NCBI RefSeq assembly: GCF_056746865.1
Contig: NZ_CM163382.1
Direction: 5' to 3' (one strand)
DNA: 64,000 nucleotides
Shown here: positions 12,001 to 15,000 of the stretch, in pieces
Layout: each line of letters begins with the position of its first letter
Position numbering within the stretch: position 1 is the first letter of the stretch
Position numbers: made by a program

Positions 12001-15000
12001 AGGTGTCCACACTGCCACGAGGTGAGTTAGCCAGGTAGTAACTGCCTATCGGGAATGGCATTGTGCGAATGATGTCCTCGTCATCCTCCAGCACTGCCAT
12101 TGCACCAGTGCTGTATGTGCCGAGGCTTCCGTATAACTGCGGCAGCGACTGATAGAGATTCGACTTATTGAACATATCGTTCATGCGGTTCTGCACCGCC
12201 TCAAGCCACAACTTAACAGGGCCATAATCCATCATTTCAGGATCTGGCGTAGCCAGGCGAAACCACGGACGCGCGGGGCTTGTGATGCCTGACATCATGC
12301 CGCTGGCGAGAGTGCGCGCCGCCATAGTCCCGGTCGAATCAATAATGCGTGTATTGCGTCGATCGTTACGGTTAACCTCAGAAGTCAGAAAGCGGGAACC
12401 ACGCGGGTTGATGTAATCACTCAACTCGCGCCAGTGCGGCTCGAACGACTGACGCTCGCTTTCAAGTTGTGCGAACTGTTTGTTCAATCGCTCTTTAGTT
12501 GTTTCCGCCATTTCAATGACTCCGGTTACTGACCAAGCAGCGTTTTACCGCTGGTATTAGCGGTTGATGTGTCGCCCTGAGAACCGGTAAGCAGCGTAGA
12601 ACTACGACCAGCAGCAGCGCGACGGCGACGAGTTTCTTCGTCGCGGGCATCAACAACGGCGGCATCCTGCTCCTGTGGTGCTGCCTGAACTTCTGGTGTT
12701 GCAGGCACTGATGGTGAGCTACCCATGCACATATCAATGACTCCGTACGCAATTAAATTATTACCAATTTAACCACATATGATTTATTTATCGTAGGTAG
12801 TTGACATTTAACGCACAAATTATTACCTTTCAGGTAACCAAAGAGTTCATTCCGGTTACTAACCTGACTGGCTTGTCGTTAAATTGAACAGGTGGAGTGA
12901 GCTTTTATTTTGAGCAGTACGGCGTATGGCACATGCGCCGATAGCGGTCTGGATACGTTTAAGGGGCACCCTCCCTTGCTCGGGCAAACGAACCAGGTAG
13001 CCGGAATGTGCAAGTCGAGCGGTTTTATTCCGCGCACGGGGATTCACCATCCCGGCGATTCGGTGTGACGCCTCGGAAGAGACGAGGGTACAACGATGAG
13101 AGCATTTATGGAGCCGCGACAAAGTGTGGCGCCTTAACAGGCTAAGTGCTCTCAGCGTTGTGGCATTAGCTCAGCTGGACAGAGCAACCGCCTTCTAAGC
13201 GGTTGGTCGCAGGTTCGAATCCTGCATGCCACGCCAGAATCACGCCTAAGGACCGTGATGCCAGAAGTTCCATGGGCTTGGCGGTGATGGTTTCCCTTGA
13301 AGGACTATCACCGCCCTTTTTACAGCAGGACGCCATTGCGATGGCTTCATGCTGTAAACCAGTACAGCCACGGAAGGCATAACTCATTGCTTCCAGTTCG
13401 CCCGGTTCGCCGGGCATTTTTTTAAGGTGAGATGATGAACGACCAGCAAATCGAAAAAGAAATCGTTGAGAAAGGTAAAACGGCACCTCGTGTAACTCCT
13501 GAGAAAATTGAAGGTCTCATTTGCAGTGAGCATTTTTTACTGCTGCGCAGGGGGATCATCAGGCTAAAGAAGATGACCTTATTTATAATCCAGAGCCTTA
13601 TGTCGAAGCCACCCCTGATGCTCTGCACCTTCTCACTTTCTGCGTCCTGGTGCTGCGCAACGACTTCACCGTCACCGGAGAGAGCGCCTGTGCAAGCCCG
13701 GAAAACTTTGATGCAGAAATTGGTCGGAAGATTGCCCGGCAGAATGCTGTAAACAAAATCTGGATGCTTGAAGGTTACTTGCTGAAGCAGAAGTTAAGCG
13801 GGCAATAACACCGTGACATGTCACAAACAGCCAGCCTATGAGCTGGCTTTGTTTTATCCTCACCAGAGGATATCAACGACATTATCCCCACCAGCGGATT
13901 AAGCATAGGGATCGTAATCTGTAATGGCCTTGCCTTGCTGGTTCTGCTGACCTGGAATTCGCAGACGCTTCGACACAGGGAAAGCAAACGTCAGCAATAG
14001 CGCATCGCCTTTACCCGGCGAACGCCCAAGACGCTCTTTGATATCTTCCTTCGGTTCGATAACGATTTTACCGTCCACGCGAACTTTGTACTCTGCCGCC
14101 GACAGGTCGTCCGCTGTTTCCTGGTCATCCAGCATGCCGCCCAGCCTCAGCCATGTCTTACATGAGTTGAACATCTCCCCACGCTTGTTAAGCATCTGCG
14201 GGTCAGTGGACGCACCGCCGAACGGAACAAGTTGCCATGTACGCCCCCAGCCATCACCGATTGACTTCAAACCGGTTCCGTAACCGAAGTCGATGAACAC
14301 TGCGTCAGCCTGGTACTGGTCTTCAAAGTCAGCGATACGCTTCGCCATAATCAGATCGTCAGTGGTCTTGTTGCCAGTCCACAGCACCTTACTGTGCAGC
14401 CCCTGCCGCAGGTATATCACAGCGTCATCAACGCCGGAGTATGCCGGGTCAACGCCGATTATCACCGGAGCATGTGCAACCTGCGCAGCGGTTACCACCC
14501 GTTTCATTGCCTCGTCAGTAAGACCGGTAGGGATAAACTGCAATTCAGATGCATCAGGGAATATGCCACGCACACGGATTTTAACGAAGTCGCTGTCTTC
14601 CCCGTAGTCATCAACCCATTTCTGCAACTGCTGTTTGTTAGTGCCTTCCACCGTCCGGCTGTCAATCTGCGCAGTTTTCCAGCGGTGTTTATATTTGCGG
14701 AAACATTCGCGAAAACGCCCGGTGTTACGTGTAGGGTTTCCGAACGCCACCCAAATAATCTCAGTGTCTTCGTCCGTAAGCGCACCCTCGGCAACTTCCC
14801 ACACCAGATCCGCAATGTTCGACGCTTCATCAAACACCACGATGATGCGTTTGCGCTCGTTGTGTAGTCCGGCGAATGCCTCAGTGTTGTGCTCAGACCA
14901 GGGTATTGCGTCAGCCCGCCACCGCTTGTCGTGCCCAGGGTCATTGCTGTACATCGCGGTAGCGGTACAGGTAAACCAGTCTTTCGTGATAGCAAGGTTC

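Follow-up and report, generated by a model that had tools for sequence, protein, structure and literature searches.

What occupies the roughly 320 nucleotides (nt) between a prophage promoter and the transfer RNA (tRNA) gene behind it, when no protein appears to be encoded there? The question is raised by positions 12840-13159 of a 64,000-nt stretch of Escherichia coli DNA (contig NZ_CM163382.1, RefSeq assembly GCF_056746865.1), referred to here as the window, in which a first, sequence-only reading had seen a GC-rich (guanine plus cytosine) non-coding region that might be a structured leader, a small RNA or a degraded second tRNA. The non-coding stretch is real, although its limits have to be redrawn, as conservation across phages runs from 12918 to 13160, one base into the tRNA gene. 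This segment is an intact member of a structured RNA family of ~165-245 nt found in temperate phages of Enterobacterales. The proposal of a structured leader or small RNA is strongly supported: the segment is a full-length member, at 142 bits, of a covariation-supported, pseudoknotted family and lies ~80 nt past a predicted, repressor-controlled promoter. Conservation is very high and no protein homologue was found, both of which speak for RNA. The sequences also give a concrete lead to RNA polymerase control of the type known for the put RNA of phage HK022; the function itself is not established.

In a BLAST comparison with phages, window positions 12919-13159 were ~80% identical to non-coding DNA of otherwise unrelated phages: lambdoid phages (mEp460, cdtI, Stx2c and Stx2a phages, 2H10 and Ayreon), P1-type phages (P1, P7, D6, SJ46 and RCS47) and Uetakeviruses, these last being phages of Klebsiella, Salmonella and Enterobacter. 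Approximately 590 plasmids match over the same segment as phage P1; nearly all are non-mobilizable, with sizes of ~75-120 kb among the matches listed, and they are probably P1-like prophage plasmids. The family comprises hundreds of copies, one per phage. IMG/VR was scanned twice, with an invariant 19-mer (GGTAGCCGGAATGTGCAAG) and with the pattern of the first hairpin, P1; each scan returned at least 120 loci and the two together more than 200, and at least 111 unique variants came from the 19-mer scan. The 19-mer is also present in 24 contigs of a bacterial set with one genome per species, all but two of them from Enterobacterales (Citrobacter, Kosakonia, Klebsiella, Escherichia, Phytobacter, Buttiauxella, Candidatus Erwinia and others), and the remaining two are short contigs of metagenome-assembled genomes. 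A 701-nt query consisting of the element and its tRNA matches 1081 of 5426 complete E. coli genomes, with at least 80% of the query matched in 501.

A covariance model, R1, was built for the family core and matches window 12918-13095 over its full length (142.3 bits, E = 8e-43). Exactly one full-length match, at 114-169 bits, is found in 89 of 90 further loci (the window included), the last locus holding a 24-bit remnant. In phage epsilon15 (locus L001, 1806-1879) only the first 74 nt of the element are left, namely the P1 helix and half of P2/P3, and the tRNA has been lost too; this is a deletion relative to phiV10-like phages, and the element is therefore dispensable for epsilon15. The record of Stenotrophomonas phage vB_SmeS_BUCT708 (L005, 2442-2597) holds a typical member of 156 bits that closely resembles Klebsiella versions, and its host assignment looks doubtful because all other hosts of the family are Enterobacterales. 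The same locus has a sub-threshold match to RprA at 2631-2750 (50 bits against a gathering score of 70).

The first alignment of the family showed invariant blocks separated by length-variable segments, most of which form hairpins. Base pairs were counted on a second alignment, A2, made with MAFFT from 43 diverse members and not fitted to any structure. The resulting features in the window, with lengths in base pairs (bp), are as follows.

12918-13095, plus strand: structured core with helices P1-P6 and two proposed pseudoknots (R1, A2, pair counts).
12920-12940, plus strand: P1 hairpin, 5 bp (CGGCG/CGCCG), 11-nt loop UAUGGCACAUG; similar to put stem I (A-CGGCG ... CAUG-CGYCG).
12947-12998, plus strand: P2 (12947-52 with 12993-98), enclosing the variable hairpin P3 at 12953-12992 (pair counts, folds).
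12996-13014, plus strand: essentially invariant 19-mer GGUAGCCGGAAUGUGCAAG, a junction; its AUGUGC (13006-11) can pair with GCACAU of the P1 loop (12929-34) in a proposed pseudoknot, PK-A.
13014-13056, plus strand: junction helix GYC/GGC, 3 bp (13014-16 with 13054-56), enclosing P4 and P5 (pair counts).
13017-13038, plus strand: P4, a segment variable in length and sequence; predicted stems are weak in several homologues.
13039-13053, plus strand: P5, 4 bp (13039-42 with 13050-53) and a 7-nt loop UUCACCA; compensatory changes in three of four pairs.
13045-13065, plus strand: pseudoknot PK-B, CACC of the P5 loop (13045-48) with GGUG (13062-65); covaries.
13071-13087, plus strand: P6 hairpin CCUCG-GAAGAGA-CGAGG with a nearly invariant loop; compensatory changes in four of five pairs.
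13091-13160, plus strand: P7 domain, CAAC (13091-94) with GUUG (13157-60) and GAGAGCA (13098-104) with UGCUCUC (13147-53), with a variable tip; fold of -37.5 kcal/mol.

Covariation among homologues, which the sequence-only reading had named as a check, gave compensatory changes in six helices and one pseudoknot. In the P1 helix three of the five pairs change in this manner (for example columns 7:19, G:C in 21 sequences and A:U in 20), and in P2 the pair 33:91 occurs as C:G (29 sequences) or as U:A (13). PK-B changes from CACC:GGUG to AACC:GGUU in mEp460-type members, with 40 C:G and two A:U in A2 and 86 C:G and 21 A:U among 108 unique sequences. Over the whole structure, 96.4% of cells form a standard pair, compared to 27-45% (maximum 44.6%) when the partners are slid by one to three columns; 14 pairs are changed on both sides where shuffles average 8.2, as are 97 cells where shuffles average 27.3, and none of 500 shuffles equalled the observed pairing by any measure. 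The compensatory changes in six helices therefore indicate selection on pairing within a single strand. PK-A is 99% paired with no compensatory change and, though fully compatible with the data, remains unproven because it is invariant. The 19-mer it involves occurs once in the window (0.02 expected), is identical in the members found through it, and has only three single-base variants among the matches anchored on the P1 hairpin.

The more peripheral parts are less uniform. P3 is a hairpin in most homologues, varying in length and sequence, while after P6 the order RCAAC, long P7 hairpin, GUUGUGG is seen in 148 of 195 unique contexts. The stem of P7 differs in sequence among homologues with its complementarity kept, its last G (13160) is base 1 of the tRNA, and the domain is absent from the phage P1, PAT1 and mEp390 members. 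A second kind of conserved 3' domain, CCAUUCACGCUAAGCAUC ... GAUGCUUAGCGGGACUGGAAGAGUUACCACUUGGAGACGGUCC, follows the core in PAT1 (L008, ~1715-1830), mEp390 (L012, ~1600-1700), L035, L042 and L043, and holds another GGAAGAG. Four further pairings or motifs were considered and set aside: an RNAalifold alternative that opens the P1 helix (CCG with CGG) has no compensatory support, whereas the P1 helix has; a loop-loop kissing interaction of P3 (YUCCYUUG) with P6 (GGAAGAG) is supported by phage SopranoGao alone (GCUUCC/GGAAGC) and is not taken as established; the 3' tail GGUGAAU and its potential partner AUUCACC show no covariation in mEp460; and a k-turn at the internal loop of P7 is not conserved.

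That the stretch lacks a convincing open reading frame (ORF) was borne out, since its four small ORFs have no Pfam match and their PHROG matches are at noise level and confined to families of unknown function. The 87-amino-acid minus-strand ORF at 12859-13122 was rightly taken for spurious, as its frame is open in just 18 of 43 diverse homologues; in the same set the core length leaves a remainder of 1 on division by three in 20, of 2 in 14 and of 0 in nine. The plus strand of the stretch folds with z = -2.96, and none of 100 shuffles folds as well. A degraded second tRNA can be discarded, since ARAGORN and the Rfam tRNA model (E up to 10) are blank over 12840-13159 and the covarying helices form no cloverleaf. 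The description as GC-rich holds next to the promoter region at 12740-12839, which has 31% GC, but not for the window at large: 12840-13159 has 53.4% GC, where the window averages 51.2%, and ranks at the 70th percentile among segments of 320 nt. The conserved core at 12918-13159 reaches 57.4%.

The RNA family is undescribed in Rfam or in any searchable paper. The Rfam scan that the sequence-only reading had looked to for an identity came back empty: in Rfam 15 (4227 models, including riboswitches, ribozymes, STnc100, C4, DicF, ROOL, GOLLD, 6S and YrlA) the core matched no known family, whether scanned within the window (E up to 10), at seven homologous loci (E up to 1) or in the isolated mEp460 leader. 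Full-text searches with ten characteristic strings of the element returned a table of CRISPR spacers as the sole match and no paper describing it, and nothing relevant was found in the literature on antiterminator RNAs, phage P1 transcriptomes or RNA-motif surveys. The spacer, ATCGTGGCGATCAGGTGTGACACCTCGGAAGA, has 32 nt and is listed for Enterobacter cloacae complex DSM 16690 (PMC5888411); it matches the segment from the P5 3' strand to P6 (equivalent to window 13050-13081) of lambdoid-type members, and host CRISPR arrays have therefore sampled the element. GenBank records are either blank over the element or show a hypothetical protein, such as gp37 of mEp460.

Other RNAs occur near the element in some of these phages. 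Sub-threshold matches to STnc100, an Hfq-associated prophage small RNA (33-40 bits against a gathering score of 47), lie in the same early operons of phage P1 (L004, 2058-2177), SfV (L238, 4752-4967) and ST64B (L237, 7465-7583); those of ST64B and SfV are beside the position of the element, the ST64B match just 3' of the tail sequence, and that of phage P1 is elsewhere in the ban operon. The PasD/STnc100 literature was followed as a lead and has no bearing on the element. In the antirepressor region of mEp460 (L002, 206-394, minus strand), Rfam C4 antisense RNA (83.6 bits) and isrK (67 bits) are matched, both unrelated to the element.

If the element is an RNA, where is it transcribed from? 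The window is an E. coli prophage of the phiV10/epsilon15 type, genus Uetakevirus (records 99% identical), and the element belongs to a plus-strand cassette between the portal and terminase genes, consisting of an AT-rich promoter region, the stretch studied, tRNA-Arg(UCU), two terminator-like hairpins and an ORF of the Gp49/Sf6-gp66 family. The placing of the stretch between a cassette promoter and a phage tRNA was accurate, the promoter being a predicted site. The features of the cassette and its flanks are listed below.

10832-12511, minus strand: portal gene, flanking the cassette.
12801-12829, plus strand: promoter-like site read from the sequence, with a perfect -35 TTGACA (12801-12806), a 17-nt spacer and a weak -10 TACCTT (12824-12829).
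12823-12837, no strand assigned: palindromic operator TTACC-N5-GGTAA, TTACCTTTCAGGTAA, overlapping the -10 and the predicted transcription start.
12836-12917, plus strand: lineage-specific leader, restricted to Uetakeviruses; a long hairpin ending in a U-rich run.
13160-13236, plus strand: tRNA-Arg, anticodon UCU (ARAGORN; Rfam tRNA, 71.7 bits), adjoining the element.
13280-13315, plus strand: first intrinsic-terminator-like hairpin after the tRNA (terminator scan).
13400-13415, plus strand: second such hairpin, right before the Gp49-family ORF (terminator scan).
13432-13808, plus strand: last cassette gene, Gp49/Sf6-gp66 family (PF13876, profile match), split over two frames.
13899-15374, minus strand: large terminase gene, flanking the cassette.

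The same -35/-10 arrangement is present in epsilon15, and the cassette promoter is treated as predicted only, because a strict consensus promoter scan of the window did not call it. The palindrome TTACC-N5-GGTAA has 14 copies in the window against 1.1 expected, in operator-like clusters (12823, 15967/15985, 20058/20120, 22022-22421, 23119/23181 and others, paired ~20-60 nt apart); from their arrangement these dispersed sites look like operators of the prophage repressor at several promoters, as for C1 in phage P1, and the equivalent of the 12823-12837 site in epsilon15 carries the annotation 'repressor / lysogeny'. The leader at 12836-12917 is kept in Tyrion, PAT1, a Klebsiella phage and epsilon15, and is not found in lambdoid phages or phage P1. 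In the split Gp49/Sf6-gp66 gene, 13650-13808 aligns with PF13876 profile positions 35-82, while the N-terminal ORF (13432-13752) uses a different frame and, in its middle part, lacks homology to the intact allele of strain Z142-1; the split may reflect a pseudogene, frameshifted or mosaic, or else an error of sequencing.

Clustering of neighbouring ORFs at 131 loci gave two large classes, the Uetakevirus portal/terminase cassette (~49 loci) and the leader of the lambdoid early-left (PL) transcript (~70 loci); the ban operon of phage P1 is a third, unrelated backbone. The lambdoid loci have a same-strand gene that ends ~150 nt before the element and encodes a cI-like repressor, for which two different families are represented, and early-left genes (YfdQ/DUF2303, 5'-nucleotidase, ParB-like and others) follow downstream, also on the same strand. 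In mEp460 the cI terminator is followed by two TTGC-N7-GCAA operators, a motif that recurs between cI and cro, then by a predicted, PL-like -35/-10 pair that overlaps the operators and, ~40 nt on, by the element, which from this order therefore opens the PL transcript. In phage P1 the element, whose homologous segment is 71023-71191, lies between tRNA-Ile, which ends 15 nt upstream, and ban, in the C1-controlled ban operon. In the window it would start ~80 nt after the operator-overlapped promoter. Judged by such predicted start sites, all three backbones would transcribe the element from repressor-controlled early promoters. No protein gene is common to the classes among the 131 clustered loci, and the loop and junction bases are nearly invariant in A2; a host-encoded partner is therefore likely, as far as gene content and conservation can tell.

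Downstream of the element, at least one terminator-like hairpin in the sense orientation occurs 100-900 nt past the 19-mer in 83% of 167 unique contexts; most lie at 200-500 nt, frequently as a tandem pair. tRNA-Arg(UCU) adjoins the element in 48 of 195 unique contexts. Where no tRNA follows, a tRNA-like cloverleaf can be drawn past the GUUG tail, as in L072 (2862-2964, minus strand; fold z = -2.5) and in mEp460 (L002, 2741-2872), with an acceptor GUGGUGA/UCACCAC, D-like and T-like arms and a 3' end ...CACCAC-AAC in place of CCA; it is not called by ARAGORN. The unit of P7-like hairpin, tail and tRNA-like fold is duplicated in some leaders, and a 7-bp acceptor-like closure follows the tail in 66 of 159 contexts that have one, compared to 5% at control positions.

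What, then, might a structured RNA do at the head of such transcripts? In phage lambda, the start of the PL transcript is the site of nutL. The putL RNAs of HK022 and HK639 likewise stand at the start of the early-left transcript (PMC9378689). The put RNAs (HK022 putL and putR, HK639 putL-like) are sense RNAs close to an early promoter in phages without an N gene; the element is placed alike in mEp460, and no N gene is annotated in mEp460 or Stx2a_WGPS2, while a Q-like antiterminator is annotated in mEp460. Terminators lie downstream of both RNAs, and the P1 helix plus the P2/P3 arm, two adjacent stems of ~75-80 nt, is of the size of put. When put sequences taken from the HK022 and HK639 genomes are set beside the family, the P1 hairpin A-CGGCG-(loop)-CAUG-CGYCG corresponds to A9-CGGCG14...C26AUG29-C30GUCG34 of HK022 putL, and HK639 is identical there. 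In the putL structure obtained by cryo-electron microscopy, this helix runs from A9-G35 to G14-C30 with a G12-U32 wobble and a bulge C26-G29, of which U28 inserts into the beta' zinc-binding domain of the polymerase; U28A and U28C are inactivating (PMC9378689). In A2 the third pair of the P1 helix is split between G:C (20 sequences) and G:U (17), with no variation at the U of CAUG. A degenerate motif of this hairpin, searched on both strands of 4.4 Mb of phage loci, found 208 family members and elsewhere only HK022 putL, HK639 putL-like and one other site; the motif was defined after the resemblance had been noticed, and the corrected p of 1e-3 to 1e-2 is a rough one. As evidence of a link, the resemblance between the P1 helix and put stem I is suggestive but no proof.

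By analogy with put, the element is tentatively read, at somewhat below even chances, as a cis-acting early-leader RNA that modifies host RNA polymerase. It would be transcribed as the first structured part of the early transcript once the prophage repressor leaves its operator. The nascent RNA would fold and bind the transcribing host polymerase in the manner of HK022 put RNA, with the P1 helix and CAUG, set in the P1-P2/P3 module, replicating the portion of put stem I in contact with the beta' zinc-binding domain. The polymerase so bound would resist pausing and termination, complete the untranslated RNA cargo (tRNA-Arg in the window, elsewhere a tRNA-like fold) and pass the tandem terminators to reach the genes beyond. 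The pseudoknotted 3' half is without a known counterpart. A wider version is held more loosely still: the element would stand for a new class of RNAs, much larger than put, by which host RNA polymerase is reprogrammed for processive antitermination and anti-pausing. Linked to put by its first hairpin only, it would serve as the missing early antitermination device of N-less lambdoid phages, including Stx2-converting phages, and would also have been adopted by phage P1 and Uetakeviruses to ensure that their untranslated RNA cargo is transcribed.

Several observations weigh against a put-like role. With filters off, R1 has no match in HK022 (24-40.7 kb, containing putL and putR) or at the HK639 putL-like site, and HK022 putR lacks CAUG, so that the resemblance is limited to ~15 nt and may have arisen by convergence or chance; PK-A would, in addition, occupy the CAU that is bulged out in put. 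Position does not always fit either: the phage P1 element is 2.4 kb from Pban, directly before ban and not promoter-proximal as put is, and is followed by no predicted terminator-like hairpin; the copy in Klebsiella phage SopranoGao comes after the lysis genes; and the Uetakevirus operon extends for only ~1 kb before it meets the convergent terminase gene. In the window the single ORF of the cassette is broken while the RNA is intact, and epsilon15 is without most of the element. ST64B has mEp460-like OL operators, a P7-like hairpin, the tail GUUGUGGUGAAUG and downstream terminators, but a different RNA replaces the core, and the core is absent from SfV in the R1 search; it is thus not required by every phage with this early-left operon. 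The ST64B replacement (NC_004313, L237, 7560-7960, minus strand) is a non-homologous structured segment of ~300 nt (fold z = -2.8) and may be a second, analogous class of leader RNA; its candidacy as a diverged homologue was rejected when R1 with filters off found no match. SfV orf33, considered as an N analogue, is not arginine-rich.

Whole-element homology to put was rejected, as the covariance model and local alignment against shuffles were both negative, and the differences are considerable: the element is two to three times larger than put, its pseudoknotted 3' half and invariant 19-mer have no put counterpart, it has neither a strand equivalent to put A3-G7 (which pairs with C15-U19) nor a triplex strand, it is present as one copy per phage where put is an L and R pair, and it also occurs outside lambdoid phages, in phage P1 and Uetakevirus.

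The strongest competitor, unlikely but to be taken seriously, is a stable RNA that acts in trans, released from an early multi-RNA precursor by RNase P at the adjoining tRNA or tRNA-like fold, with loops that sequester or redirect a host factor for take-over or as a decoy against defence. The neighbourhood suits it well: tRNA-Arg begins at the last base of the element where the two adjoin, the tRNA-Ile of phage P1 ends shortly before it, tRNA-like folds with acceptor-like closure follow the GUUG tail elsewhere, and the ban operon is an array of RNA genes, with a dicF-like region, three tRNAs and the STnc100-like match. The core also appears swappable as a module, given the other RNA in its place in ST64B and the lack of P7 in the phage P1, PAT1 and mEp390 members, and in the window it is intact where the ORF downstream is broken. 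The immunity RNAs c4 of phage P1 and CI of phage P4 are cut from leaders by RNase P and provide a precedent. No candidate partner or target was found, however; the element is never a stand-alone gene with its own terminator directly behind, its orientation and position are always those of an operon leader, and the resemblance to put stem I would be coincidence. More broadly, the element may be a protein-free RNA for host takeover or anti-defence of an undescribed kind.

A self-cleaving ribozyme, or a dedicated RNase-processing signal that parts RNA cargo from messenger RNA (mRNA), is improbable: invariant junction nucleotides, pseudoknots, a location at tRNA-mRNA boundaries and the RNase III site annotated in the epsilon15 leader are what it would lead one to expect, but no Rfam ribozyme family is matched and E. 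coli processes tRNA flanks without such elements. If anything slightly more improbable is a riboswitch-like leader that senses a ligand or tRNA and governs transcription past the terminators; the conserved pseudoknotted core, variable peripheral stems and 5' position before terminators are typical enough, yet no terminator overlaps the conserved 3' end, terminator distance is variable and a whole tRNA may intervene, the downstream genes have no common function across contexts, and no Rfam riboswitch class is matched. That the segment is not an RNA element at all, and instead encodes a small protein on one strand or the other, is the remains of a tRNA or is conserved as DNA, for example as a site of recombination or binding, is very improbable, since the hypothetical proteins in some records (mEp460 gp37), a weak PHROG 6855 match and the coincidence of the GUUGUGG tail with a module junction are outweighed by a frame that is not conserved, indels that are not multiples of three, the lack of Pfam and tRNA model matches, the compensatory changes, and a transcription orientation that belongs to the plus strand alone in all contexts.

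Phage P1, Stx2-converting phages and phages of the phiV10/epsilon15 type are among the best studied, and in them an element conserved far above its surroundings has been overlooked. If modification of RNA polymerase is its role, this would explain early-left expression past tandem terminators in lambdoid phages of the SfV/cdtI/Stx2 type that have no annotated N, and put would be widened from a curiosity of HK022 to a family sharing a polymerase-contact hairpin; a 2025 survey of lambdoid phages left the early-left question open and only suggested a "put-like" RNA (PMC12315714). If it instead acts in trans, it would be a new example of RNA cargo travelling with phage tRNAs. R1 offers a simple annotation route for hundreds of prophages.

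Comparison with other known systems places the element between several of them. The lambda nut/N sites and the boxB-boxA-boxC leaders of rrn operons resemble it in standing at the start of early operons or of operons for untranslated RNA. The P6 loop begins with GAAGA, the loop sequence of lambda nutL boxB; it has 7 nt, however, not five, and no N gene is annotated in the carriers mEp460 and Stx2a_WGPS2. Some P7 3' strands read UGCUCUUU, like rrn boxA, but this string was rejected as a conserved boxA because it is base-paired and changes with compensation in other members. The c4 (P1/P7) and CI (P4) RNAs are similar in being derived from leaders and released by tRNA processing, as a tRNA or tRNA-like fold adjoins the element; they differ in that neither sequence nor structure matches, the Rfam C4 match in mEp460 lies outside the element, and no antisense target is apparent.

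ROOL and GOLLD are large, highly structured RNAs of unknown function that are often found in prophages beside tRNA genes (bioRxiv 10.1101/2024.12.08.627333). They differ from the element in their length of ~580-800 nt and in belonging to other bacterial phyla, and the Rfam scans gave no match to either family over it. The EAR element of Bacillales, for its part, is a structured, pseudoknotted RNA of more than 100 nt inside an operon, where it acts as a processive antiterminator that reads through distant terminators. It belongs to another phylum, is chromosomal and not of phage origin, and has another sequence and structure, with no match to its family over the element in Rfam; it is nevertheless the nearest precedent for the mid-operon position of the phage P1 copy.

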